Origin: Candidatus Latescibacterota bacterium
GTDB lineage: Bacteria > Latescibacterota > UBA2968 > UBA8231
DNA: 64,000 bases
Reading direction: 5' to 3'
NCBI GenBank assembly: GCA_965217585.1
Contig: OZ244561.1
Span: 7,072,001 to 7,136,000 of the forward strand
The notes under the pieces are model-generated. The model saw only the letters and a program-made list of their open reading frames with translations, ran no database searches and was not told the origin of the DNA. Every line of letters starts with the position of its first letter. The first letter of the stretch is position 1. Position numbers and translations under genes: made by a program. Shown piece after piece: positions 1,498 through 62,329 of this stretch.

Positions 1498-4400
1498 CTA
1501 CTCCGCTAGGTCTTGGTACAGTGCTTCATAGTAGGCCTTGATGCGGGCCTTGAAGGCGGCAGGAGAACGCCGGTTGCGCGCCTTGAAAAACTCCGTAGCA
1601 ATGTGCTTGGGCAAGCGCAGCGACGGTCCAGAATCTTCCGCGAGGAAAGACAGGCCGCGGTTGCGGCGGCGTTCGTTGGCCAGGTTGCGGGCCCGCAACT
1701 CCAGAATCCGGCCGTACTGGAGCTCGAGGCTCTGGGCGTGGGCCGGCGGCCCCACCGCGGCAAAAACTCGCGCCGCCAATTCGCGCACCAGAGACAGCTC
1801 GGCATGACGCAGCTCCTCCGCCCAGCGCCGATCGTGGCCATCCACAATACCCTGAATAGTCCACAGATTGATCGAACTCCTCGATTTGGTGAAACGCCGG
1901 TTGAGCTGAGCCGTTGCATTCACCGGGGGCAGGTGGACCGCCGCGGCAAGGCGCCCCGTGGTTTCGGATAATTCCTCGCGCACCGCGGAAAGCCGCCGCT
2001 GCACTTCCGGTCGTTGCAATACATCCTTGCCGGTCGGCCGGGATCGGAGCATGCGCTCCAGTGCCTGCAACTGCTGTCGCAGGTCTTCCTCTTCCTCCGC
2101 CCCCGCAACAGCAGTGGCTACGGCCCTGAGCCCCTGCAAGACCCCGGCAGCGCCTTCCTGCAGGCCTTGATCGAGTTGGCCCGTGGCGCGCACGAGATGC
2201 ACCAAGCGTCCCTCGTGCCGAGCGATCTTGCCAAAAATGGACCCCGCCAACTGTTCCTGCGCCGCCGCGTCAACCGGCTTACCCGCAACATCTAGAAAGG
2301 AGCTGATGTACTCGAACTCCTCGTGCAAATGCTCTAGGTATCCCTCGGTGCGGGTGCGTTTCATCAACGCCGCAAAGTCGTAAGTGACCTCTTCCCCCTG
2401 CAGAACGGCGGCGGCGAGATCCGCGCAGCGGCGCAACTCTTCGGCCACGTCGCGACTGCCGTCGGCAATTAGCCCATACGTCTTGATCCGTTCCGCCGTC
2501 TCTCTGCCCTCGCGCCCATAGCGATTCAACACCTTCTCCGCAGACTGGCTCGCGACCATGGTCATGGCCAACTGCAGGCCGTGGAGCGGCTGCCACGCCG
2601 GCCAATCGCCGGGTTGTGCTCCTCTGTGCAGGCGCTCTTGCGCCAGCAGGAAGAGCACCGCGCGCGTATAAGCCTCCAGCCCTTCGACGCGCTGCTTCAA
2701 GGCTTCAGCCTCGCGGTACAGGCGGCTGTGGATGGCCTTCCCGGCAATCTCCGCAAAGATCTCCGGTTGACTCGCCAGGGCCTGACAGCGAGGGCCGTAC
2801 GCCGCAAAGGCATCAGCCGTTTGCCGCAAGCTAGTGCGCAAGAATCCAACATGCTGCGCTAGAGAGCCCTGCCATTTGGCAATCGCCGCCGGCCCGGGAA
2901 GCTCCTCTACCGCTTGGTCAAGTGCTGTCAGCAGAGCAGAGTCCTCCCGACGCAAAACAGCATGGAGATCGCCGCGCAGCGCCGACGAGAAAACCTGCAC
3001 CAGTTGCCCCCGCTTTTCTTCGCTCAACTCCGGCATCCCGGCAACCATCTCCCAGACAACGAGAAGTCCTTCGCGCAGCGCCGCTTCGCGATCATCGGCA
3101 GCGGCGGCAAAAAGCTCGTATCTGCCACAGAGCAGATCTAGCTGGTGGGAGCGCAGACGCTGATGCAGTTGATCCAGAGCCAACCACAGATCCACCAGTG
3201 ATCCGGGCGGTGCATACCAGTTGCCCGGTGCCATGTTCCCAGCTTGGGTGGCCAGACCAAAATGGAGAAGCTCCAGCGGCCGGAAGAGGCTCTCCTGGCC
3301 ACGCGCCCGCATCACTTCGCCGTGCGCTCCCAAGAAGCGCGACCGCGTTCCTTCATCTCTTTGAGCTTCCTCGGCTAGGGCTTCCACCAAGCGCACGCTC
3401 GCCGCCGACGGCGCGCTCATCCGCGCCGCCAGTTGGGACGTGAAGCCGGACAGGTGTTGGGCCACTGCCGCCACATCCTTCGCCCGATGAGCCGCCCGCA
3501 GATCCACCAGTACCCGCTTTAGTTGCGGCGACGGATTCGGCAACTCGTCCGCCGCGACCAAGAGGGCCGCAAGCTCATCCAGATAGAACCTCAGATTGGC
3601 GGCATAGAGGGCTTGGTTGTGCTTGAGTCCGGCCAGGCTGCGCAGTTGCGTGTCGAGCTTGCGCGCCTTGTGCAGGAGATGCTCGGGCAGGAAACGCAGC
3701 GTTTCCGCCCGCACCGCGGCCAACCAAATCTGCGCGAAGGCTTGGCCGCGCTCGTGGGCCTGTTGCAACTGCATTAGGACGACTGGCACATCCTCGCTCT
3801 GCGGCAATTGCTCTACCAGAGGCAGCAAATCTCCATACCTAGGGAGAACCTGATGCGGCAGAGCCAACAAAACGGCTGCGCGATTCAGACGATAGGGAAA
3901 ACCGCCGTAGCGCTGGTGGTAATAACGCGCCAGCCCGAAGACATCGGGCTGCCGGTGGGTGCTCTTGGTGTACTCGGCAAGCAGTTGTCCCTGCGCCGGT
4001 GGCCAGGTCTTGCTCTGCCCCACGGTCGCCGCAATGATGTTGAGCTGATTGGCCAAGTTGCGATGGTAGCTCAGGTAGCTCTCTGCCGCCGATTTCACCA
4101 GATTGAGATATTCCATGCCGCGCTGGAAACGAGCGGAGAAATCGTCGTTCACAATGTGAATGCGATACTTGGCCGTACGGGTCTCTTGCCCCTTGGAGTC
4201 GACCGCCACAAGCCTGAATTCAAAGGGCTCGGTGCTATAAACGCGGTAGTCCATGCGCTGGATCAGTTCCTGCCCGCCGAGCTGTCGCTTCCCATAATCC
4301 GGATGATGGATGTACTCCTCACCGGTGAGCTCGGTCACAGCCGCCCCGCCCGCTACGGTCCAGGACATGATCAGATCGCTCACCGCATAGTCGTCCTCCA

Positions 4401-5823
4401 CAGCAAACTGATAGGCCACCGTCTCCCCCGGAACGATGGTCGTCTCACTCTCCAGTCCCGTCATCGTCACCTTGGGCGGCGCATCCGGCAAAGCCTCGAT
4501 CATGCAGAGCCATTCGCGGCTGTAGAGACCGTTCTTGCCGCGGGCGCGCAGGCGCAGAATGCCGCTGTCATCCGCGAGGAGCCGGAAGCGGCCGCCGGCC
4601 GCGCCGCGCCGACGCACCGTCAGCTCGCGCCGTCTAACATCCTCCTTTTCCTGCTTGGCGCCGGGCTGGCCGATCTTTAGCAGGTTCTGGCCGAAAAGCC
4701 CCTGCCCCCCTGCATCCCCTTTCTTCTGCAAGATTTCAAAAGTCGCCTCAATCCCCTCGTGGGGTTCACTGCAACGCACCTCGAATTCCATGCGCGTACC
4801 ACTGAGGACACTGAGGCGCTTGGCAGTGAGTTCCTGCTGGATCACATTTTTGCGCCGCGCATACTTGGGGAACCGCAGCGTATGGGTGACACCGCTCAAC
4901 TTGATGCGCGGCGTCACCGGCTGCTGCCACCAAGCACTGAGCGCATCGTCGGCCCGGACGCGGAAACGCAGCGGTTCCCCCAGCCGCACAGCGCGAAACT
5001 GCCAGCGCTCACCTTGCCGCCGGCACTCGCCCACTTCCACGCCAGTGGCCGTTTGGTACTCCACCTGCGGCGGTGCCTGGAATCCGGATCCTGCCATGCC
5101 GAGTTCAGCCAGCCATGTCGTCTGGCGCTCAAGTGCGATGGTGAGGGTAAAATTGCTGTCCTCCGGCAACGCCGGCAATTCGCCGTCCGTCCACGGACGA
5201 CCGTTCGTCTCCAGGAATCGGATGACTGTAAAGCTGTCGCGCGGCAGGTTTGCTTGCGGTTGCCAGAAACGCTGCCACAAGAGGGTCAGGTCGAAGGCGC
5301 TACTCCATTGCAGGAACCCAAACCAGAGGACCATGCTACAAAGGCAAACCAGACCAGCTCCCAATGCCCGGCGGCGCACCGTCGCTGCGACCGGGGCGAG
5401 AGAAGTTTTCTCTTCCGTCTCTTGACGCAAACGGGCCAAGAGCATGGCCGGGCCGACCTTCTCACCCGCCGCCTCACGGCGCGCCAGATCCAGCGCCGTA
5501 CCCCAACGGTCCTGATGTTGGGGTAGTGCCTTGTCCAAGTGGATCGCCACCTCCAAGGCATCCGGACGGATCCAGCGCCACAGGAAGAAGAATCCCAGCA
5601 CCAATAAGAGGAGCCCCCCGGTGAGCCCCCAAGGACCAATGCCGCGCACCGAAGGGCTGAGCTCCACAAAGCGATCCAGCAGGAGGAAGGCAGAGAGCAA
5701 GAACGCCACCCCCGCTACCCCAAAGGCGGCCAGAGCGCACAGGGCTACGGCGCGGCGCAAGCGCACGTAGAGCTTGACTCCTTTCCGTACATTGGCGGGC
5801 AGATTGGCGGGGAATTGCATCAC
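1498..5823 (-). CDS. Large membrane-anchored protein of MoxR cluster (DUF4175-like)
   Basis: 1441 aa: three N-terminal TM segments, Ig-like beta region (DAPPKV...DDYAVS), long helical C-terminus ending 'IKAYYEAL'. Confidence 0.6.
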   Translation of the reverse strand: MMQFPANLPANVRKGVKLYVRLRRAVALCALAAFGVAGVAFLLSAFLLLDRFVELSPSVRGIGPWGLTGGLLLLVLGFFFLWRWIRPDALEVAIHLDKALPQHQDRWGTALDLARREAAGEKVGPAMLLARLRQETEEKTSLAPVAATVRRRALGAGLVCLCSMVLWFGFLQWSSAFDLTLLWQRFWQPQANLPRDSFTVIRFLETNGRPWTDGELPALPEDSNFTLTIALERQTTWLAELGMAGSGFQAPPQVEYQTATGVEVGECRRQGERWQFRAVRLGEPLRFRVRADDALSAWWQQPVTPRIKLSGVTHTLRFPKYARRKNVIQQELTAKRLSVLSGTRMEFEVRCSEPHEGIEATFEILQKKGDAGGQGLFGQNLLKIGQPGAKQEKEDVRRRELTVRRRGAAGGRFRLLADDSGILRLRARGKNGLYSREWLCMIEALPDAPPKVTMTGLESETTIVPGETVAYQFAVEDDYAVSDLIMSWTVAGGAAVTELTGEEYIHHPDYGKRQLGGQELIQRMDYRVYSTEPFEFRLVAVDSKGQETRTAKYRIHIVNDDFSARFQRGMEYLNLVKSAAESYLSYHRNLANQLNIIAATVGQSKTWPPAQGQLLAEYTKSTHRQPDVFGLARYYHQRYGGFPYRLNRAAVLLALPHQVLPRYGDLLPLVEQLPQSEDVPVVLMQLQQAHERGQAFAQIWLAAVRAETLRFLPEHLLHKARKLDTQLRSLAGLKHNQALYAANLRFYLDELAALLVAADELPNPSPQLKRVLVDLRAAHRAKDVAAVAQHLSGFTSQLAARMSAPSAASVRLVEALAEEAQRDEGTRSRFLGAHGEVMRARGQESLFRPLELLHFGLATQAGNMAPGNWYAPPGSLVDLWLALDQLHQRLRSHQLDLLCGRYELFAAAADDREAALREGLLVVWEMVAGMPELSEEKRGQLVQVFSSALRGDLHAVLRREDSALLTALDQAVEELPGPAAIAKWQGSLAQHVGFLRTSLRQTADAFAAYGPRCQALASQPEIFAEIAGKAIHSRLYREAEALKQRVEGLEAYTRAVLFLLAQERLHRGAQPGDWPAWQPLHGLQLAMTMVASQSAEKVLNRYGREGRETAERIKTYGLIADGSRDVAEELRRCADLAAAVLQGEEVTYDFAALMKRTRTEGYLEHLHEEFEYISSFLDVAGKPVDAAAQEQLAGSIFGKIARHEGRLVHLVRATGQLDQGLQEGAAGVLQGLRAVATAVAGAEEEEDLRQQLQALERMLRSRPTGKDVLQRPEVQRRLSAVREELSETTGRLAAAVHLPPVNATAQLNRRFTKSRSSINLWTIQGIVDGHDRRWAEELRHAELSLVRELAARVFAAVGPPAHAQSLELQYGRILELRARNLANERRRNRGLSFLAEDSGPSLRLPKHIATEFFKARNRRSPAAFKARIKAYYEALYQDLAE

Positions 5824-46337: not shown

Positions 46338-48716
46338 CTACTCCTCTTCTACTACTTCCTCTTCTACTGCTTCCCCTGCCACTACTTCTATCTCAAGGAT
46401 TTTAAAACCTTCGAGCAATAAATCGACGTCTTGCTGCGTGGAAATAGGCGCAGGGGGGGCAGGAGGAGGACCGGGAGGAAAGGCTCCAGGTGGCGGAAGT
46501 TCATCAAAGCCGCCTTCGGGTTCGCCTTCACCTTCTTCACCTTCACCACCTTCAGGTTCACCCTCACCTTCTCCTTCACCTTCACCACCTTCAGGTTCAC
46601 CCTCACCTTCTCCTTCACCTTCACCACCTTCAGGTTCACCCTCACCTTCTCCTTCACCTTCACCACCTTCAGGTTCACCCTCACCTTCTCCTTCACCTTC
46701 ACCACCTTCAGGTTCGCCTTCTCCATCTACAAACTCAGGCGGTGGCTCGGGAAATGCCGGTGGCGGGGGTGGCGGGGGTGGCGCGACAAACGTCAAGCGA
46801 GCTTTTAAGAGGACATTCTCGTCGGGTTTATTCAGTCGTGCAAAAACATCATCGAGCGTTTCCTCACCCCCAAAAAACGATGGCGGTGGGCCGAACAACA
46901 GCGCATCGTCCCCTAATAGTGCGGCGGACCCCACTTCGAGTTGGTAAAAGCCAGGGAAGAGCGTGTCCGGCACGCTGAGGGCTAGCTCGACTTCCCGGTC
47001 CTTGGTCCGTCCCACGCGCAGTGAAGAGGTAATATTCAGCGTACTCCCAAGACTGACGACCGTGTCGGCAGTAACCTTCGTCAGGGTGGCAAAACGAGTC
47101 TCAGGAATCATTTCGACATGCACCTCGGCCTCGCGCACATATACGGCGTAATCGTACCTCGTCATAAGCTCCGAAAGTGCGAACGACACGTCGCCATAGG
47201 CATTAAAAATTGAGGCAAAGAGCCGTCCGCCTGGTGAGGAGTAGAGCCGGGAACGAGTGAGTGTTGAATCGGAGCCGGCAAAAGCGATATCCGTCGTAAC
47301 GCGGATACTGTGATCAGGATCGTTGTCGACCCGGTTGGCCAAGGGATAAAAGAATGCATTGGAGACGAGATCGAGCGAGGTATATGGGCTGATACCGACG
47401 GCCATCCTGTGCGTAAGTTCGAGTTCGCTCCCTGAAGGAAACGTATAGACGCTCTTAACAGGTACTAATTCTGGTTCCTGATCGAGCACGCCGCGCACCG
47501 CGGGCAAACGGTCTTCGGTCAGAGTGCCCCGCACCGTTGGATTCAGCGTTGCAAACTTGAACGGAGCGGACAAATTGGAAATTTCGCCGAGCACCTTTGC
47601 TTCGATTATGGGAAGCTCTACCGGACCGCTACTATTCATTGGATGCCCAAACCCATAGACCCGGTTGCCATCGACGTACGATATGGTTCCCATCGCACCC
47701 AGCGTAAGCTCACCGAGCAGCAACCCAACGGTCAGTGGCCTGCCGGCCTCAAAGCTGGCCTGACGCTCTTGGGTCAGACCAGCGGCGCTGGCTCCGCTCA
47801 GGATAGACGAACGCCCTTCAGGCAGCGAACGCACCCCATTGAGTCCCGTGCTGAGCAAGGGGGTATCCAAGGGAGTAATGCCGTTTCCTTCCCACGTGGC
47901 CGTGGGTTTGGCCGCAGGCATCATTCCCCGCGTGCCGATGACCCATTCTATGGGCGTGGCAAAAAAGTAGTACGGCGGGTTGTCTTGGGCAGAAAATCCA
48001 TAAGCAATGGCACCCCAGGTGCCCTGCTCCGTAAAAATGGGCGAACCGCTCATCCCCTGAGCAATGCCCCCAAGCTGTATCAGAACAGGGTCCGAGGCTT
48101 CGACCATATAGACCGGCATCGGTGCCAAAAAATCATCAACCACCTGGACGAACGTCATTTCGAGATCGGCGAGCTCGCCGTTAGCAAATTCAGTGCGCAG
48201 GAATACGGGCGTGCCCGGGGGCATGGCACGAACCTCGTCAGCCGAGACTATGGGCGAAAGATCCCAAGGCTTTAACTCCCCGGTGGGCCGCAAAATCGCT
48301 TCTGGAGCCAGGATGGAACCGGCAGCCGCCAGCATGGAATCAGCGGCGGCCAGCATGGTATTCGCGGCGGCTAGCATGGAAGCCGCATCGGCCGCTATCG
48401 TCGAATCTGCGTCTGCGGCGACCATTGCATTGGCGGCGGCGATCATCGAATTCGCGGTAGCCATCATGTCATTAGCAGCGGCCAGCATGGAATCGGCATC
48501 GGCGGCTATTGTTGAATCCGCGTCCGCAGCGATCATTATATTCGCGGTGGTCAGCATGGAATCGGCGGTGGCCAGCATGGTATTGGCGGCGACCAGCATG
48601 GAATCCGCGGTGGCGATCATCGAATCGACGGCAGCCGCCGTTGGTGCAGGATCGTCGTCGTCCCCACAACTCCATAGACCAACGGCGAGTGCGAGTAGTG
48701 CTAAACGAATCGGCAT
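46338..48716 (-). CDS. SpoIVB-like S55 serine peptidase lipoprotein with repeat regions
   Basis: Lipobox 'LWSC', 'GGIAQGMSGSPI', 'GTISYVDG.RVYGFGHP'. N-terminal heptad repeats and C-terminal Pro/Glu/Gly repeats. Confidence 0.85.
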   Translation of the reverse strand: MPIRLALLALAVGLWSCGDDDDPAPTAAAVDSMIATADSMLVAANTMLATADSMLTTANIMIAADADSTIAADADSMLAAANDMMATANSMIAAANAMVAADADSTIAADAASMLAAANTMLAAADSMLAAAGSILAPEAILRPTGELKPWDLSPIVSADEVRAMPPGTPVFLRTEFANGELADLEMTFVQVVDDFLAPMPVYMVEASDPVLIQLGGIAQGMSGSPIFTEQGTWGAIAYGFSAQDNPPYYFFATPIEWVIGTRGMMPAAKPTATWEGNGITPLDTPLLSTGLNGVRSLPEGRSSILSGASAAGLTQERQASFEAGRPLTVGLLLGELTLGAMGTISYVDGNRVYGFGHPMNSSGPVELPIIEAKVLGEISNLSAPFKFATLNPTVRGTLTEDRLPAVRGVLDQEPELVPVKSVYTFPSGSELELTHRMAVGISPYTSLDLVSNAFFYPLANRVDNDPDHSIRVTTDIAFAGSDSTLTRSRLYSSPGGRLFASIFNAYGDVSFALSELMTRYDYAVYVREAEVHVEMIPETRFATLTKVTADTVVSLGSTLNITSSLRVGRTKDREVELALSVPDTLFPGFYQLEVGSAALLGDDALLFGPPPSFFGGEETLDDVFARLNKPDENVLLKARLTFVAPPPPPPPPAFPEPPPEFVDGEGEPEGGEGEGEGEGEPEGGEGEGEGEGEPEGGEGEGEGEGEPEGGEGEGEGEGEPEGGEGEEGEGEPEGGFDELPPPGAFPPGPPPAPPAPISTQQDVDLLLEGFKILEIEVVAGEAVEEEVVEEE
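46536..46715. repeat. Perfect 39-bp tandem repeat, about 4.6 copies, coding (EGEGEGEGEPEGG)
   Basis: Unit TTCACCTTCACCACCTTCAGGTTCACCCTCACCTTCTCC starts at 46536, 46575, 46614, 46653 and 46692 (partial). Confidence 0.95.
48320..48630. repeat. Degenerate 21-bp (7-aa, A-D/N-S/T-M-L/I-A-A/T) coding repeats
   Basis: Recurrent CAGCATGG core. Protein reads ADSMLVA-ANTMLAT-ADSMLTT... Confidence 0.8.
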
Positions 48717-55790: not shown

Positions 55791-57338
55791 ATGAGCAAAC
55801 GCAGATTACCCATCGGCATTCAAACCTTCCGCGAGATCCGCGAGGAAGACTGCTACTACGTCGATAAGACCGGCTACATCTGCCGGCTGCTCGACGAGGG
55901 CAAGCACTACTTTCTGTCGCGTCCGCGCCGCTTTGGCAAAAGCCTGTTGTTGGACACGCTCAAGGAGGTGTTCGAGGGCAACAAATCGCTGTTTGAGGGG
56001 TTGGACATCCACGACCACTGGGATTGGTCACGGCGGTATCCGGTTGTGCGGCTGGACTTCAGCGGCGGCAGTTACTACGAGCGGGGTGGTCTGCACGAAG
56101 ACGCGATGGCGCAACTACAAGATTTGGCAGAAGAGGCCGGGGTTACGACCCGTTACGAGAGCGCCTCGGCGTGCTTTCGCCATCTGCTTGGGGCACTGAG
56201 TCGGCAGGCTGGGCAGCGCGTTGTAGTGCTGGTAGATGAGTATGACAAGCCGATTTTGGATGCGCTGGAGGTGCCGGACATCGCCCGCGCTAACCGCGAC
56301 TTTCTGCGCGACCTGTACGCGATGATCAAATCCAGCGATGCACACATCCGCTTCGCTTTCATTACGGGGGTGAGCAAGTTTTCCAAGGTCAGTTTGTTTT
56401 CTGGACTCAACAACCTCAAGGACATCACCCTCGACCCGCGCTACTCCGCTATCTGCGGCTACACCGAGGCAGACCTCGACGCGGTGTTCGCACCGGAGTT
56501 GCCCGGCCTCGATAGGGACGAGATCCGCGACTGGTACAACGGCTACCGTTGGCTCGGTGACGAGAAGGTGTACAATCCCTTCGACATCCTGCTGCTCTTC
56601 GACAGCCGCAAGTTCGGTGCCTATTGGTTCGAGACGGGTACACCGACGTTCTTGGTCGAAACCCTGTGCAAGCGCCACGTCAGCTCCTTGGAGTTGGGCA
56701 GCATGGAGGGCAGCAGCGACCTGTTGTCCACCTTCGACGTGGACGACATAGCGACCGAGGCCCTGCTGTTCCAGACCGGCTACCTCACCATCCAAGACGA
56801 GGAAGACCTCGGCGGTGAGCCCGTCTATCGGCTAGGCTATCCCAACCGCGAGGTACGGCAGAGCCTGAACCGCAGCCTGCTGCGCTACTTGGTGCAGGAT
56901 GCCACGCGGCAGATGGCCAATAGCGTCCGGCTCTACCGGCTATTAGAGGCCAACGACTTCGCCGGGCTGGAGACGCTATTCCACGCCTTTTTCGCCAGCA
57001 TTCCCTATGAGTGGTACACCAACAACGACATCGCCCGGTACGAAGGCTATTACGCCAGCGTGTTCTACTCCTATTTCGCCGGGCTAGGGCTGGACATCAA
57101 GGTAGAGGACAGCAGTAGCCACGGACGATTGGACATGGCGGTTCTATTCAACGGCAACGTCTATCTATTTGAGTTCAAGGTGGTCGAGTTGGCGTCCGGG
57201 GGCGCGGCGATGGGGCAATTGAAGGAGCGGCGCTACGCGGATAAGTATCGCGGTTTGGGGCAGCCGATATACCTGATTGGCGTGGAGTTTAGTAAGGATA
57301 CGCGCAATGTGGCGGCGTTTGCGGTGGAGCGGGCGTGA
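55791..57338 (+). CDS. AAA-ATPase-like + PD-(D/E)XK nuclease (PDDEXK_9 type)
   Basis: 'LPIGIQTF..IR....YVDKT', 'SRPRRFGKS', 'LVDEYDKP', C-terminal 'GRLD...FEFK...Y'. Confidence 0.93.
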   Translation: MSKRRLPIGIQTFREIREEDCYYVDKTGYICRLLDEGKHYFLSRPRRFGKSLLLDTLKEVFEGNKSLFEGLDIHDHWDWSRRYPVVRLDFSGGSYYERGGLHEDAMAQLQDLAEEAGVTTRYESASACFRHLLGALSRQAGQRVVVLVDEYDKPILDALEVPDIARANRDFLRDLYAMIKSSDAHIRFAFITGVSKFSKVSLFSGLNNLKDITLDPRYSAICGYTEADLDAVFAPELPGLDRDEIRDWYNGYRWLGDEKVYNPFDILLLFDSRKFGAYWFETGTPTFLVETLCKRHVSSLELGSMEGSSDLLSTFDVDDIATEALLFQTGYLTIQDEEDLGGEPVYRLGYPNREVRQSLNRSLLRYLVQDATRQMANSVRLYRLLEANDFAGLETLFHAFFASIPYEWYTNNDIARYEGYYASVFYSYFAGLGLDIKVEDSSSHGRLDMAVLFNGNVYLFEFKVVELASGGAAMGQLKERRYADKYRGLGQPIYLIGVEFSKDTRNVAAFAVERA

Positions 57339-57343
57339 GCGTC

Positions 57344-57389
57344 GGGGGTGGCTGTCAAAATTGACCGGGTTCAACGCACCCGGTACAAT
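57344..57389 (+). promoter_or_regulatory. Sigma70-like promoter, copy 2 of the direct repeat
   Basis: TTGACC (57361)-17 bp-TACAAT (57384), upstream of the VOC gene. Confidence 0.7.
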
Positions 57390-57428
57390 CGAATTCTATC
57401 GACTTAAACTCATCCACGGGAGGAAAAT

Positions 57429-57947
57429 ATGAGAAGTCACAGAATTGCCGCAGCAGTAGTAGTTGCAGGAATCGCCATCGGCATTAGCTCAATCGCCGTC
57501 GCCCACGAGGACCACGACAAGGCTTCCGCACCCACGGCGTTCACCGCCATGACGCCGATTCTGAACGTCGCAAGCGTGGAGGCGAGCATCGAGCACTACA
57601 CCTCGGTTCTTGGTTTCAACAAGGACTGGGACTGGCCCGCCGAGGCCGAGGACAAGACCTTTGCCTCCCTATCCAATGGCGAGGTGCATATCTTTCTCGC
57701 CGAGAATTCGCAGGGTGCCCGACCGGTGTGGCTCTACTACAACGTCGGGGATGTTGACAAGCTGCACGAGGGGTACGCGGCGGCGGGGGCGAACATAAAG
57801 AAGGTGCCTGTTGACGAGCCTTGGGGGGCGCGGGAGATGCTGGTTGAGGACTTAGATGGGCATGTTTTGCGGATTGGCGGGCCGCCTAGCAGGGGAGAGG
57901 GTGGTGAGAGTGAGGAAGGGGGCGATGAGACGAAAGAAGATGGCTAA
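57429..57947 (+). CDS. VOC / bleomycin-resistance family protein with signal peptide
   Basis: 'TPILNV.SVEASIEHY..VLGF', 'PVDEPWGAREMLVEDLDGHVLRIG'. GGAGG RBS. Confidence 0.85.
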   Translation: MRSHRIAAAVVVAGIAIGISSIAVAHEDHDKASAPTAFTAMTPILNVASVEASIEHYTSVLGFNKDWDWPAEAEDKTFASLSNGEVHIFLAENSQGARPVWLYYNVGDVDKLHEGYAAAGANIKKVPVDEPWGAREMLVEDLDGHVLRIGGPPSRGEGGESEEGGDETKEDG

Positions 57948-58143
57948 AGTCAACGACACAGAGCAGCCTTCAGAGAGTGAGAACACTCGAACTATCCCTT
58001 CGGCGGTCAAACTCAAGCAGCTAATAGGCACCTCGCCCGCTTGCCGAATGCTGACGCCGGAAGAAATCGAGTTGCTGAGGAAAAGCAAGCAGGAAATGGA
58101 TCAAGTCGTGGGCGAGGTCCTTGCGGGGAAACGAGATACATAG
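57940..58143 (+). CDS. Small hypothetical protein (67 aa), paralogue of nested ORF 61212-61421
   Basis: MAKVND...LKQLIGTSPACRMLTPEEIELLRKSKQEMDQVVGEVLAGKRDT. 29/43 aa identical to the nested ORF. Start overlaps the VOC stop. Confidence 0.75.
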   Translation: MAKVNDTEQPSESENTRTIPSAVKLKQLIGTSPACRMLTPEEIELLRKSKQEMDQVVGEVLAGKRDT

Positions 58144-58191
58144 GATTTGACCAAGCCGATAAACCTGATTGGCGTGGAGTGCAGCAAGGAT
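58144..58191 (+). pseudogene. Remnant of the 3' end of an AAA/PD-(D/E)XK gene
   Basis: 39/48 nt identical to 57252-57299 (core 26/27). Translates DLTKPINLIGVECSKD versus GLGQPIYLIGVEFSKD. Confidence 0.75.
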
Positions 58192-58300
58192 GGGAGCGAA
58201 GCGGGGGCAGGCAGGCTCTGAGACGCCAATGCCGATGGAGTGGGCGACGCCAATGCTGCGGTAGCCGATGACTCCAGATCGGGTACATAGTAGGTTGCCT

Positions 58301-58424
58301 TATTCAATGAGGCCGGGGCAACGAGGCCCCGGAAATACGCACATACTTTGTGCGAGAAAATCACAACTCCCATACTTCAATGAGGCCCGACGATAGGGGA
58401 CGCTATTGCGCTGTCGGGGAAAAT
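58301..58424 (-). CRISPR. Single-spacer type I-G mini-array (one near-canonical and one divergent repeat); putative regulatory crRNA-like RNA
   Basis: Minus strand reads: divergent repeat ATTTTCCCCGAC...GTCGGGCCTCATTGAAGT (58424-58374), 35-nt spacer (58373-58339), repeat GTATTTCCGGGGCCTCGTTGCCCCGGCCTCATTGAATA (58338-58301). The GGCCTCATTGAA end and stem-loop match I-G repeats. Confidence 0.8.
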
Positions 58425-58439
58425 TTCATAGATTTATGG

Positions 58440-58474
58440 TTCATGGGAGTAGTAATATTAAACATTTTAGGAGG
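58440..58474 (+). promoter_or_regulatory. AT-rich putative promoter/RBS region containing a TTC-PAM partial protospacer for the mini-array spacer
   Basis: TTC (58440-42) followed by ATGGGAGTAGTAATATT, matching the spacer at 14 of the first 17 nt. -10-like TAATAT at 58453, AGGAGG at 58469. Confidence 0.65.
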
Positions 58475-58484
58475 ATAGAGTCCA

Positions 58485-58688
58485 ATGAGAAATAAATATT
58501 GCCTCACACATTTAGCTTTTCAGTTTGAGCAGGTTTCGGTCGAGATCGTTAATGACGAGCCATCCTACGGGACTAGATATGAGCAACGATCTAGGCCCTC
58601 CAACCCGGAACAGACTACTGTACCAAAACTCAAGCCCTTGTTGCTCCCCGCCGGGGACAGCGCGAGGAATACTAAAGATGACCTCTAA
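58485..58688 (+). CDS. Small hypothetical ORF (67 aa) leading the cas operon
   Basis: Perfect AGGAGG 10 nt upstream, ATG AGA AAT AAA start. No recognisable domain, so coding status is uncertain. Confidence 0.4.
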   Translation: MRNKYCLTHLAFQFEQVSVEIVNDEPSYGTRYEQRSRPSNPEQTTVPKLKPLLLPAGDSARNTKDDL

Positions 58689-58760
58689 CCAAACGAAACG
58701 TCGCGACTAATGTCAATCACCGCTGCGGCAAGACGCAGCCAAAACGAACGAGGATAGACT

Positions 58761-59969
58761 ATGATAATTGATCTACAGACCTTGCGGGACGCGGTTGGCG
58801 GAACGGCGGCAGCATTTCGGTGTGTGACCGACTATCAGCCGACGGGAGGCCGTGGTGATAAGGTTTTTCCGCCAACCTATGAAGGCGGCAAATACGCCAC
58901 AGAGGAGCGCGTTGATCCCGCTACTGGCGAGGTTCGGCAGTGCATTCTCTTGGATTCAGTGCAGTCGCAGGCCAACCGGATGGAGTTGGCATTGCTGGAG
59001 GCACACTGCGCCGGAACGGTACAGCTTCCTCTGCTAGTAACGCGCTTCGATCAGGAGAAACTGCTCAAGAAGTTCTCGGTGACCAGCTTGGAGGCACCTC
59101 ATCGCATCGCGGATGCGTTGTTCCGCGACAGCCTGCTTGAAGGCACGATTTTCCGCAAATCAGAGAAAGGTCGAATACTCGACACTGCGGAGGTGAGGAA
59201 CGCCACCGGCCTATTTGGCTTGTGTCCGACCGCACTGATATTTGGGCTGTGGGACTCGACTGGACCGCGTGGAGGCTTGGGGTGCAAGTTTCAGCGGGCG
59301 GTAGTGTCGGAGATTATGGGATATGATGCGGTGGCAGGGGAGAAAACAGGAAGCCGCATCGATCCCGCTCAGATCATGCTTGGAGCGGGTCCGTTATACG
59401 AGCGCAAGTCTTCAGATGATGATGTACCTGATTGGACCTTGGATGAAAAAGCGGGATCTAAAAAGTTGGGGAAGGACAAGAAAGGAAGGCCATCGGAAGC
59501 CAATCACGGAAACGTCACGCCAACTATTACGGAAGGCGGATTCACCATCTCCAGTGCCCGGCAAACGACAACCTTGTCTCTGGCCGTCTTGCGCCGTCTC
59601 CGTTTTCCCCACAACGGTGCCGCTGATTCTAACCACGATACCGACCTCGCGGCACGCACCGCACTGGCCGCCTTGGGCCTCACCGCCGGTATTCTAGCGA
59701 GGATCGATACGGACCTTCGCTCTCGTTGCCAGCTTTTCGCTGAACAAGAACCTGTGTGGGAACTGCTCGACCGCCCAGGAGAACCTCCACGGAAATTTGA
59801 ACTTAGTCCCGAAGATGCGCTGAAACTGTTGGCAGCGGCCATTACCGAGGCGAAAAACGCGGGACTACCGTGGGAGGACGAAATTGAGTTGACCCCATCG
59901 CCCGAACTTGTCGAACTGGTTCGGCGTAGCCAGGAATTGGCCAGCACATCGGGAGAAGGGGAAGACTGA
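58761..59969 (+). CDS. cas7: Type I-G CRISPR Cas7 (Csb1)
   Basis: 'KVFPPTY', 'LLDSVQSQANRME', 'PHRIADA', 'PTALIFGLWDS', 'LRSRC'. Confidence 0.93.
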   Translation: MIIDLQTLRDAVGGTAAAFRCVTDYQPTGGRGDKVFPPTYEGGKYATEERVDPATGEVRQCILLDSVQSQANRMELALLEAHCAGTVQLPLLVTRFDQEKLLKKFSVTSLEAPHRIADALFRDSLLEGTIFRKSEKGRILDTAEVRNATGLFGLCPTALIFGLWDSTGPRGGLGCKFQRAVVSEIMGYDAVAGEKTGSRIDPAQIMLGAGPLYERKSSDDDVPDWTLDEKAGSKKLGKDKKGRPSEANHGNVTPTITEGGFTISSARQTTTLSLAVLRRLRFPHNGAADSNHDTDLAARTALAALGLTAGILARIDTDLRSRCQLFAEQEPVWELLDRPGEPPRKFELSPEDALKLLAAAITEAKNAGLPWEDEIELTPSPELVELVRRSQELASTSGEGED

Positions 59970-62329
59970 TGTTCTCTCTTGGCATCCATTACCTGAATGG
60001 ATGGTCCATGGCAGCGGCGGACGGGGCGCGAAAAGAGCAGGCCGAATGGCCACCGCATCCCGATCGGGTGTTCATGGCGTTGGCGGCAGCTTGGTTCGAG
60101 ACCGGCGAAGATCCCGCCGAAGGCGAGGCCCTGCGCTGGCTTGAAGCCTTGCCACCCCCTGCGATTGCCGCCTCGGATGCGGACAGTCGCGTCACTGTTG
60201 TTAGCTATGTGCCCGTCAACGACGCGAACCTTAGTAGCAAGGTGCCTACTAGCGGAGACTTGAACAAACTAAAGAATGCCGGACTGGCCCAGCTTCCAGA
60301 GCATAGATCGCGCCAACCCCGTGGTTTCCCAGTTGCCATCCCCCATGATCCGACGGTACATCTAATTTGGCCGGATGCCGAATTGGGCGTACATCGCGTC
60401 GCCTTAGAACGGCTGGCCGCCAAAGTTACTCATGTGGGTCATTCGGCCTCCTTTGTGCAAATGTGGCTGGAAGCCAAGCCGCCGCCGCCCGCGTGGATTC
60501 CGACGTTTGGCGTCGCCCGTCAGCGACTGCGCGTAGCGAGCCCTGGGCGCTTGAAGGTGTTGGAAACGCGCATGAACCGCGCCGCATGGATCGCCTACCA
60601 CGATCTTCGCAGCGAGATTGAGCAAGCTGAGGCGGACCTCAAGGCGATGAAGCAACCGCCAAGGGTGCCTTGGAAGGCATTCGCGGATGTGGTGCTACTG
60701 GCCAGTGAATCTGCGGTCAAGCAGCATCCAGATTATCCCGGTGCCAAGACGGGTGACATCGTGGTCGCGACGAAACTAGTCAACAGCTTGGTTGACGAAG
60801 CGGGGATCGCCGCGATGCGGGAACTGATCGCCGAGGTTAGTGAAAGCGGCGATCCTGTACTAGTCAGCGCACATGCCTACGAACGCCAAAGCGTCAATGC
60901 CATTCCGATTGCCTTGGCGAAGTTGCTGAGCGAGCGACTCGGGATCCAGTTCGAGACTAATATCGTGCAGACCAATGTCGTTTCCCACACGGGTGCGGAC
61001 GGTTATGGCCGCCTTGCCCGCCAAGCTCGCTTTGAAGGCGGCGTTGATAAGGGCCGCGAATACGTGATGGTTGATGATTTCGTCGGTCAGGGCGGTACGT
61101 TGGCGAATCTGCGTGGCTGGATCCAAAAACAGGGCGGCAAGGTCGTCGGTGCCGTTGTGCTGACCGGCAAGCCGTACTCCGCTAAATTAAATCCTTCACA
61201 GGAGCAACTGCATGAACTCCGACAAAAACACGGATCAGACTTCGAGAGATGGTGGAAGGAACACTTCGGACACCCCTTCTCTTGCCTCACTCAATCAGAA
61301 GCTCGGTACCTCGCCCGCTCCCCGGATGTTGACACCATCCGAAATCGTCTTGCTGCGGCAAAGCAAGAAGGAAATGGCCCAAGTTGCACACGAAGTCCTC
61401 GCGAGCAAAGACAATACATAAAGGAAATGAAAGCGCGTTTGGAAGACTGTTTCCCCGATGGGAAGAAACCCGTGAGTCTGCCTCCGGTGCCGGGCCGTTG
61501 GCAGGGATACGATAGACCCCCGAAAGACAAGGCCCCCGAAGCTCCCGGCTCGGTTTTCGACCCTCAGCTCATTGTCCTCGGCATCAAAGGCAAGCGCGTG
61601 TCCTTGCCGGCGACGCTCAAGCTCACGGCGGCCCTGCGCAGCTTATTGATGAAAGAGTGTCCCGAACAACCGCCGCCCGAGTGGTTCAGTGGACATCGCT
61701 TGGACGGTACGCCCACCGCCGAACCGCATCTGGCTTTGACTCCGCTCCCCTTCGTCGGCGCAGAACATGCAGATGGTCGCATTATGGGTTTGGCTCTGGT
61801 TCTGCCGACGGGTTTGGATCAGCAGGAGGAGGCCGGGCATTGTCTCGAACCGTTCCTGCGCGACATAGCTACCGGATTGCCGCGTGAACATCCTTTGTTC
61901 GATGGCCAGTGGTTCGAGTGCGCTATTGAACTGGAAACCCGCGAACGCCCGCCGAAAAACCTTGACCCGGATACTTGGACACGGGAATCGCGCATTTGGG
62001 CGAGTGTGACCCCGGTGGTCCTGAACCGACATTTCGATGGTAAGGACAAGTGGGAGCGGGCGGCTGAGAGCGTGAAAGATGCATGTCTGCACATTGGTCT
62101 GCCGCGCCCACGCGAGGTGTTGCTGCACCCGGTTTCGCTGGTTGAGGGCGTCCCCCATGCGAGGGAGTATCCGCAACTGATGCGTAAGAACGGTGGGCGA
62201 CGGAGCCATAATCACGCGGTGATCGTCTTTGATGAGCCGGTGCGCGGGCCGGTGCTCGTGGGGGCAGGTCGCTTCCGGGGATATGGGTTGTGCCGCCCGA
62301 TGGATGGAAAAGGTGAAGATCGTGACTGA
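59969..62329 (+). CDS. csb2: Type I-G Csb2 (Cas5/Cas6 fusion) with inserted phosphoribosyltransferase-like domain
   Basis: N-terminal 'EWPPHPDRVFMALAA', C-terminal Cas6 G-loop 'GPVLVGAGRFRGYGLC'. Internal 'YVMVDDFVGQGGTL' PRPP-binding motif at 61061-61102. 786 aa. Confidence 0.9.
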   Translation: MFSLGIHYLNGWSMAAADGARKEQAEWPPHPDRVFMALAAAWFETGEDPAEGEALRWLEALPPPAIAASDADSRVTVVSYVPVNDANLSSKVPTSGDLNKLKNAGLAQLPEHRSRQPRGFPVAIPHDPTVHLIWPDAELGVHRVALERLAAKVTHVGHSASFVQMWLEAKPPPPAWIPTFGVARQRLRVASPGRLKVLETRMNRAAWIAYHDLRSEIEQAEADLKAMKQPPRVPWKAFADVVLLASESAVKQHPDYPGAKTGDIVVATKLVNSLVDEAGIAAMRELIAEVSESGDPVLVSAHAYERQSVNAIPIALAKLLSERLGIQFETNIVQTNVVSHTGADGYGRLARQARFEGGVDKGREYVMVDDFVGQGGTLANLRGWIQKQGGKVVGAVVLTGKPYSAKLNPSQEQLHELRQKHGSDFERWWKEHFGHPFSCLTQSEARYLARSPDVDTIRNRLAAAKQEGNGPSCTRSPREQRQYIKEMKARLEDCFPDGKKPVSLPPVPGRWQGYDRPPKDKAPEAPGSVFDPQLIVLGIKGKRVSLPATLKLTAALRSLLMKECPEQPPPEWFSGHRLDGTPTAEPHLALTPLPFVGAEHADGRIMGLALVLPTGLDQQEEAGHCLEPFLRDIATGLPREHPLFDGQWFECAIELETRERPPKNLDPDTWTRESRIWASVTPVVLNRHFDGKDKWERAAESVKDACLHIGLPRPREVLLHPVSLVEGVPHAREYPQLMRKNGGRRSHNHAVIVFDEPVRGPVLVGAGRFRGYGLCRPMDGKGEDRD
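61212..61421 (+). CDS. Nested out-of-frame small protein (69 aa) inside csb2
   Basis: AGGAG (61200-61204) lies 7 nt before the ATG. Homologous to 57940-58143 with mostly synonymous changes in this frame. Confidence 0.7.
   Translation: MNSDKNTDQTSRDGGRNTSDTPSLASLNQKLGTSPAPRMLTPSEIVLLRQSKKEMAQVAHEVLASKDNT

Follow-up and report, generated by a model that had tools for sequence, protein, structure and literature searches.

A probable overlapping gene in the phosphoribosyltransferase-like insertion of a type I-G csb2 gene

Can the end of an enzyme domain, itself lodged inside a cas gene, encode a second protein in another frame? The question is raised by a 64,000-nucleotide stretch of DNA from a Candidatus Latescibacterota bacterium (positions 7,072,001 to 7,136,000 of contig OZ244561.1, assembly GCA_965217585.1; hereafter the window, whose own numbering is used throughout). 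Its csb2 gene, part of a type I-G CRISPR-Cas block, contains a phosphoribosyltransferase (PRTase)-like insertion, and the end of the PRTase is overlapped in the +1 frame by an open reading frame (ORF) of 69 residues. A sequence-only reading of the window took this ORF for a hidden gene. We suggest that positions 61212-61421 are very probably a real overlapping coding gene and, with good though slightly lower confidence, that this conserved gene forms one module with the PRTase; both judgements come from comparison of sequences. The ORF is conserved, the synonymous sites of the overlapped codons are constrained, the +1 frame survives where the PRTase frame decays, and the module has been captured within csb2. 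To our knowledge, long conserved same-strand overlapping genes in bacteria are rare and often disputed. The present case is an unusually clean comparative one with a natural control, namely copies that lose one frame and keep the other.

The second frame and the domain that it overlaps

The type I-G cas block closes the window, with csb1 at 58761-59969, csb2 at 59969-62329 and cas3 from about 62304. The features on which the argument turns are the following.

59969 to 62329, forward strand: csb2, the type I-G Cas5-Cas6 fusion, 786 residues in a single open frame across the insertion (TIGR02165, PF09609).
60584 to 61459, forward strand: the whole insertion in csb2 (linker, PRTase with the embedded small gene, 13-codon linker), csb2 residues about 206-497.
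60650 to 61423, forward strand: the PRTase-like domain, csb2 residues 228 to about 485, its final 70 or so codons probably dual-coding.
61200 to 61204, forward strand: Shine-Dalgarno-like AGGAG, followed after 7 nucleotides by the ATG at 61212.
61212 to 61421, forward strand: the putative overlapping small gene, 69 residues, +1 frame relative to csb2 and the PRTase, stop TAA at 61419-61421.

The evidence that carries the conclusion is comparative. A scan of one genome per species yielded 370 loci with a relative; 80 were kept, which together with the window gives 81 PRTase copies. Halves of csb2 flank 62 of the 81, and the remaining 19 are free, nine of them with cas3-, csb1- or csb2-like genes in the 3-kb flank. 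Judged by the labels of the metagenome-assembled genomes (MAGs), the loci come from more than 10 phyla (Latescibacterota, Binatia, Gamma-, Alpha- and Betaproteobacteria, Nitrospirota, Acidobacteriota, Dehalococcoidia, Rhodothermales, Entotheonella and others). Each of the 81 copies has the +1 ORF. Its start, aligned to the ATG of the window, is ATG in 80 and GTG in one; its length is 69-72 residues in 73 copies, with a range of 57-112; and it ends with TGA (49 copies), TAA (25) or TAG (6), one copy being open past the 300 codons examined. A Shine-Dalgarno-like site precedes it in 74/81 copies (AGGAG in 56, GGAG, GAGG or AGGA in 18) and is absent from seven. We note that AGGAG alone is weak evidence, because it is built from preferred Gln/Glu codons of the PRTase frame. 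Several claims of the sequence-only reading are thus borne out. The AGGAG, 7-nucleotide spacing and ATG that open a 69-residue +1 ORF are reproduced at 61200-61421. The overlapping ORF is kept in every copy examined, stand-alone PRTase homologues included. The PRTase and the small gene behave as one module, with 19 of the 81 copies standing alone and 62 lying within csb2 with both frames open.

Through codon 250 of the PRTase gene, 81/81 copies have no stop in the +1 frame, against a mean of 0.228 of synonymous-codon shuffles of the same genes. The constraint on the PRTase codons changes at the boundaries of the ORF. The synonymous codon identity, which is the share of sequences with the same codon among those having the same amino acid, is 0.443 over codons 1-185, 0.746 over codons 189-250 and 0.418 over codons 259-283 (Mann-Whitney P=3e-20 and 6e-9), and its 10-codon profile goes up at the ORF start and down at the ORF stop. 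The embedded copies alone (n=61) give 0.45, 0.82 and 0.415 before, in and after the overlap, and the free copies alone (n=20) give 0.445 before it and 0.78 in it. The start codon itself leaves a mark on the other frame. PRTase codon 188 is NAT in 80/81 copies and the next codon begins with G, while the encoded residue varies (H in 57, D in 12, Y in 7, N in 4); the NAT share of comparable codons elsewhere in the PRTase gene is 0.44. Hence, the ATG is preserved despite the varying PRTase residue. One silent CAT-to-CAC change would abolish the small-gene start and leave the PRTase unaltered. The conserved core of the predicted small protein reads TPSxALLNxxLGxSPxPRMLTPxEIxLLRxSKxE.

The PRTase frame is itself truly coding, with 2229 homologues of the insert at E<=0.001 in the length range of 155-496 residues, mostly stand-alone proteins of about 245 residues at 60-77% identity. 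Conservation of the csb2 frame among the homologues is strong as far as ...FGHxFDCLTQSEARYLARSPDVDTIRNRLAAA, soon after which the proteins end. Stand-alone PRTases stop 2-22 codons ahead of the small-ORF stop. In the AlphaFold2 model of the PRTase (predicted local distance difference test, pLDDT, 85.7) the overlap region forms three confident helices, 184-206, 215-222 and 227-240. The phosphoribosyl pyrophosphate (PRPP) loop of type I PRTases consists of a hydrophobic strand, two acidic residues and then G-x-T. The corresponding stretch, VMVDDFVGQGGT, lies at query residues 139-150, with D142, D143, G146, G148, G149 and T150 invariant in 20 sequences. The family assignment is looser. The insert scores 18.9 bits against Pfam PF00156 (Pribosyltran), under the gathering cut-off of 26.3; the fold matches of the model are OPRT, APRT and ComF, at E of 3e-5 to 1e-3 and a template modelling (TM) score of just 0.27-0.38; and the family searches (Pfam, NCBIfam, PADLOC) add only a weak PRTase_III-A match (E=0.026). 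The identities retron PRTase_III-A and XopC were considered and rejected, their matches being limited to the PRPP loop and far under the cut-offs.

The host gene is a clear Csb2. It matches TIGR02165 with 299.4 bits (cut-off 45), the match being split in two stretches with both halves in one frame. The uninterrupted Csb2 of another locus (L066) aligns by BLASTP to residues 2 to about 205 and 498-616 of the window protein; since it resumes at residue 498 after about residue 205, we place the insertion at residues 206-497 or so. The insertion was earlier thought to end at the stop of the small ORF, which is about right. The stop falls at csb2 residue 484 and the insertion ends about 13 codons further on. 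Csb1, Csb2 and Cas3 are 60-90% identical across loci from MAGs labelled as many phyla (L007-L086), and the sequences suggest that the Csb2::PRTase form spread horizontally as one type I-G variant.

A further observation concerns sequencing runs. Matching words were found in 23 of them, of which two are recorded as RNA (5-6% of sampled words). In 4/4 meta-omic runs compared, the summed contig depth at 61233-61403 is 7-20 times that of the neighbouring bins (557 versus 19-25 in run X5). It is the only place where a likeness of at least 90% is shared by many different contigs. The peak fits the extreme nucleotide conservation of the putative dual-coding core; it does not stand for expression.

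Copies in which one frame has decayed

Besides the embedded ORF, the window and three Rhodothermales loci hold copies of the small gene that stand alone.

57940 to 58143 of the window, forward strand: stand-alone small-gene paralogue, 67 residues from the ATG at 57940, stop TAG.
L061, 209 to 457: stand-alone small gene, ends matching the extent of the +1 ORF.
L064, 3020 to 3265: stand-alone small gene, ends likewise matching.
L081, 2224 to 2469: stand-alone small gene, ends likewise matching.

The window paralogue lies 3278 nucleotides upstream of the internal ORF, and its own genome holds just these two copies. Over 43 codons the two differ at 37 of 129 nucleotides, and the identity is 29/43 in the +1 frame and 21/42 in the third frame. 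The random placement of 37 substitutions leaves 20.0±2.1 identical positions, and at least 29 in 0.005% of 20,000 trials (P=0.00005). The differences split 12, 8 and 16 over the first, second and third +1 codon positions, so the third position of the PRTase frame changes least. The figures given by the sequence-only reading for this pair are largely recovered. Its 29/43 holds with the stop included in the count, as do its nine synonymous codon changes and the conserved stop position (TAA versus TAG); with the stop, ten of the 29 identical positions use different codons. Its statement that the csb2/PRTase frame is less alike also stands, with 20/41 in place of the claimed 22/44. From ATG to stop the protein alignment has coinciding ATGs and a sole gap of two codons; the proteins are 59% identical over 61 residues, the +1 frame of the paralogue is free of stops, and its PRTase frame has one TGA. 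The ratio of non-synonymous to synonymous substitution rates (dN/dS) for this copy, from about 67 codons, comes to 0.49 for the small frame, compared with 1.05 for the PRTase frame. The ATG at 57940 overlaps the stop of a glyoxalase-family gene at 57429-57947 (ATGGCTAA). Three close relatives of this copy (P0121, P0123, P0127) are predicted as proteins in metagenomes, and since P0121 and P0123 share the 13 residues before its ATG, the gene may start earlier, for example at the ATG at 57925.

In the three Rhodothermales loci, the stand-alone copy spans only PRTase residues 182-249 or thereabouts and lies just upstream of the full PRTase gene. Its +1 frame encodes MNSxKNT...SPAxRMLTPYEIGLLRRSKREM... 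in all three. The PRTase frame contains one stop in the window paralogue, three in L061, none in L064 and two in L081, and the +1 frame is open in all four. Comparison of the stand-alone copies with each other and with the internal copies gives dN/dS of 0.27-0.65 for the small frame, against 0.62-1.05 for that of the PRTase. Two of the loci, L061 and L081, have a short internal ORF (57 and 60 residues) with a diverged C-terminus, and their upstream copy is intact. A different case is L075, where a stop cuts the PRTase seven codons past the ATG and the small ORF (81 residues) is whole; a second C-terminal PRTase fragment in this locus likewise retains the small ORF. An extra copy in L016 was considered as a stand-alone gene and excluded from the count, being decayed with an in-frame stop. 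As regards the surroundings of L075, the PRTase at 2986-4925 is seemingly split by a nucleotidyltransferase/HEPN-like gene pair (translations judged by eye) and part of it is duplicated, and a Cas4-Cas1-like gene lies upstream on the opposite strand.

The small protein also occurs outside the first PRTase subfamily. A profile from both window copies collects 156 predicted-protein clusters (50% identity), 63 of them at E<=1e-10, mostly of 55-100 residues. Among these proteins, P0171 carries an MqsA-like antitoxin domain and the small-protein motif with most of the PRTase gone, P0219 a HigA-type helix-turn-helix and the motif, and P0253 the motif and DUF2442. The metagenome scan with P0171 gives 36 loci, two of them with a PRTase of a second subfamily. 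In L094 (87-1575) an MqsR-like gene is followed by an MqsA~PRTase fusion (367-residue open frame) with the +1 ORF at 1402-1575, and in L093 (2633-5689) an MqsR-like gene, an MqsA-like gene and one further gene precede the PRTase, with the +1 ORF at 5501-5689. These two ORFs encode 57-62 residues with the core as in the first subfamily. The second subfamily was found in just 4 of 400 genomes of one class searched. Since the PRTase loci with MqsA-like partners keep the +1 ORF, P0171 is probably a deletion derivative, in which, as predicted from its sequence, the +1 frame persists as a protein without the PRTase.

A more distant, 37%-identical PRTase (L091, 1395-3608) comes from an AT-rich genome, where it lies in an island with an integrase, and has a 74-codon +1 ORF in the same place; 0.32% of synonymous shuffles of this gene keep the +1 frame open. 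The island setting indicates that the module occurs outside CRISPR loci too. The L091 PRTase adjoins a tyrosine-recombinase-like gene and faces a large gene containing TPR repeats.

What the small protein may do, and what else could keep the frame open

A model of the complex was made from PRTase residues 1-255, with a 20-row alignment, and the small protein, with an alignment of 37 rows. The interaction prediction score from aligned errors (ipSAE) is 0.93 in 3/3 runs, against 0.00 for the best of three controls, the partner pLDDT is 74 or higher, and the runs share at least 91% of their contacts. The ipSAE mark is reached by 58/80 solved complexes and 2/110 mismatched pairs, which is a rough guide here since custom alignments were used. 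A sequence search found no related solved complex, which makes it unlikely that the predictor merely reproduced a known structure. In the model, small-protein residues 18-66, that is the conserved core, lie on PRTase residues 35-45, 73-112, 124-130 and 240-241, and the interface takes in the invariant SAHAYE..GVNAIP and VQTNVVSH motifs. We take these motif regions, by the usual type I PRTase topology, to flank the pyrophosphate (PPi) loop as well as the beginning of the catalytic loop; the active site may thus be occluded. Binding of the small protein to the PRTase is likely on this model. That the small protein is an inhibitor or antitoxin-like is a tentative reading, and we favour it over the role of an obligate subunit or adaptor.

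The latter role is the alternative that survives best, and we consider it possible though less probable than inhibition. It accepts both the small protein and its binding to the PRTase, yet sees no inhibitor in it; the protein would be an obligate structural subunit, an activator or an adaptor to Cascade or another partner. A small ORF accompanies every PRTase copy, and copies with a damaged internal ORF have an external one, which fits any obligate partner. A high-confidence predicted interface and the lack of an antitoxin-type DNA-binding domain in the small protein are equally in line with it. On the other side, the predicted contacts are on invariant PRTase motifs beside the PRPP-binding core, the extra small-gene copies suit a neutraliser better, and the module neighbours MqsR/MqsA-like toxin-antitoxin (TA) genes; none of the three is decisive.

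It is improbable that the overlapping gene, functional in free modules, is inside csb2 an unexpressed relic that has still to decay. A simple scan of 57300-61600 for the sigma-70-type consensus only found no internal promoter, the ORF begins 1.2 kb into the long csb2 gene, and the separate stand-alone copy in the window could do its job. However, the missing promoter is no obstacle, because internal initiation on the csb2 mRNA needs none. The embedded copies by themselves show the constraint (0.82 versus 0.45) and retain the ATG and the open frame in different phyla, with PRTases 59-80% identical, while a relic would gather stops, with just 23% of synonymous shuffles staying open.

Ribosomal frameshifting into the +1 frame, with a PRTase-peptide fusion as its product, is a still more doubtful explanation. 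Five predicted proteins do fuse the N-terminal part of the PRTase in frame to the small protein (P0154, P0272, P0273, P0274, P0282). However, they have five differing junctions, each in one sequence on one contig, with no conserved shift site, and scattered junctions of this kind fit indels or errors better than a programmed site. Moreover, P0271, which is 95% identical to P0154, has the normal frame, the ATG is kept in 80/81 copies whatever the PRTase residue, and the stand-alone small genes have no upstream PRTase to shift from.

Least credible of all is a nucleotide-level element (RNA structure, binding or recombination site) with the open +1 frame as its by-product: the extreme conservation at 61233-61403, where contigs at least 90% alike pile up in 4/4 runs, and the conserved look of codons 206-240 in all three frames would suit it, but RNAalifold (27 copies, 284 columns) finds no conserved RNA structure (-7.72 kcal/mol; covariation term -0.65), conserved stops occur in the third frame and never in the +1 frame, the ATG is maintained as NAT-G, the stand-alone copies vary mostly at +1 third positions and stay open in +1 while the PRTase frame breaks, and divergent small proteins and fusions are read in the +1 frame.

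Several points weigh against the reading of a real small gene whose product binds and inhibits the PRTase. The 81 copies are akin to each other, so their counts are of non-independent events. Codons 206-240 are conserved in all three frames (mean pairwise identity 0.83, 0.79 and 0.74), and because nucleotide conservation is so high the +1 frame is not singled out there by amino-acid identity. The dN/dS values come from about 67 codons a pair, and L064 versus L081 shows no frame difference (0.65 versus 0.62). The ORF of L091 has no detectable similarity to the family (hhalign probability 0.2%), which makes its case a positional one. The small protein belongs to no curated family, with nothing found by Pfam or PADLOC, and aroma_sacti_dom (NF045560) reaches 18.7 bits versus a cut-off of 30, just for the stand-alone copy. 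It has no named match in the PDB sequence search or the ESM Atlas, and searches of Pfam, NCBIfam and PADLOC show neither a DNA-binding domain nor a TA or defence family. The four runs compared are assembled contigs, silent on starts, ends, strands and levels, with uncovered bins carrying no meaning, and the case for coding is one made from the sequences. The binding, likely as it is, stands on a model score rather than a measurement, and we infer both the toxicity of the PRTase and its inhibition by the small protein.

With these points in mind, we suggest that the final 70 or so PRTase codons carry the small gene as an overprint in the +1 frame, which would be read from its own ATG and Shine-Dalgarno-like site into a product of about 70 residues. 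The PRTase and the small gene form one inherited module, which is found as a free two-gene unit often near type I-G cas or MqsR/MqsA-like genes. In the window the module was captured entire between the Cas5-like and Cas6-like halves of Csb2, with both frames kept under selection. The small protein most likely binds the conserved face of the N-terminal and core part of the PRTase. It would regulate the PRTase stoichiometrically, with inhibition the most probable mode, as in toxin-first TA pairs, and the stand-alone copy at 57940 would add to its supply.

The gene lies wholly inside csb2 and was thus missed by standard annotation, and a widespread type I-G CRISPR variant would thus encode one protein beyond its annotation. 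The pair defines an uncharacterised two-gene PRTase module associated with cas and MqsRA-like genes.

We consider it unlikely, although worth stating, that the pair serves as a Cascade-borne toxin-inhibitor switch. In such a switch the PRTase, lodged in Csb2 between its Cas5 and Cas6 parts, would be silenced by the small protein made from its own codons. If Cascade were lost, inhibited or changed in conformation, the PRTase would be released onto nucleotide metabolism, and the CreTA-like mini-array nearby would serve as a second guard. If this were true, the effector complex would be an immune sensor plus a suicide or addiction device, and the overlap would be an evolutionary lock, with no toxin inheritance without the antidote. 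The 'toxic Cascade variant' proposed by the sequence-only reading is speculation.

Neighbourhood and comparison with known systems

The mini-array lies between the stand-alone small gene and csb1.

58301 to 58409, reverse strand: degenerate CRISPR mini-array.

It was detected only via comparison with the genome's own repeat; repeat scans found no direct repeats in 57300-58800 and no CRISPR array in the window, and the genuine array, of 68+ repeats, is found some 9 kb past the window end. The pseudo-repeat at 58301-58336 agrees at 27/36 positions with that repeat in reverse complement, and it is followed by a 37-nucleotide spacer (58337-58373) and then by a second, weaker pseudo-repeat (about 58374-58409). 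For the spacer, the best partial target is 58443-58479, with 19/37 matches overall, the first 8 nucleotides exact and a 5' TTC. It lies just before the AGGAGG-ATG of a 67-residue ORF (58485-58688) that opens with AGA, AAT, AAA and TAT codons, and precedes neither the PRTase nor the small gene. The arrangement resembles a guard of the CreTA or CreR type. Of the mini-array link drawn earlier, the array itself holds up as a degenerate one, whereas its relation to the PRTase module is one of adjacency only, the partial target standing before another ORF.

Two other features of the window are recorded here. A predicted 515-residue protein with AAA-ATPase_like and PD-(D/E)XK (PDDEXK_9) domains is encoded at 55791-57338, upstream of the cas block. 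Tandem-repeat tracts at 46493-46726 and 48298-48651 have 39-nucleotide and 12/15-nucleotide periods of the CTTCACC type and 111-nucleotide repeats.

The literature searches gave no description of a PRTase insertion in Csb2, a type I-G PRTase or a CRISPR-associated PRTase-Cas5 fusion, and nothing relevant on an MqsA-phosphoribosyltransferase fusion. The phosphoribosyltransferase named in a CRISPR-linked-genes preprint is another protein. Compared with the usual type I-G Csb2 (TIGR02165, PF09609), the window protein is a clear member in the usual csb1-csb2-cas3 neighbourhood. It differs in the insert of about 290 residues between its halves, which brings an enzyme domain and, very probably, a second-frame gene.

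ShosT is described as the PRTase-domain toxin of the TA-type defence system ShosTA (PMC11961720). The likeness to the present pair would lie in a growth-arresting PRTase-fold effector restrained by a partner, and the ShosT structures 8zvc and 8zvd are among the fold matches of our model. However, the folds resemble each other only weakly (TM 0.31-0.38), housekeeping PRTases match no worse, and the partner here is unrelated to ShosA, being a 70-residue, helical peptide in prediction. Membership in ShosTA is thus unsupported, there being no PADLOC match, and ShosT gives a precedent for a growth-arresting PRTase held by its partner.

The toxin-first type II TA pairs mqsRA and higBA share with the present module a larger first gene with a small coupled second gene, and a complex that is predicted here. 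MqsR/MqsA-like genes lie beside the PRTase or are fused to it in L093 and L094, and extra small-gene copies occur. Unlike these pairs, the module matches no known toxin or antitoxin family, its small protein has no DNA-binding domain, and the overlap is some 60-70 codons, not a few bases.

Out-of-frame small genes embedded on the same strand of a longer gene are known in comS inside srfAB of Bacillus subtilis and in Rz1 inside Rz of phage lambda. As in these pairs, a short +1 ORF with its own start and ribosome-binding site lies in a longer gene; in comS and Rz1 both products are functional. The present overlap differs in that it covers the 3' end of a domain and passes the stop of the stand-alone PRTase. 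The pair is conserved over many phyla and its products are predicted to bind each other, and here the whole pair is inserted into a third gene, csb2.

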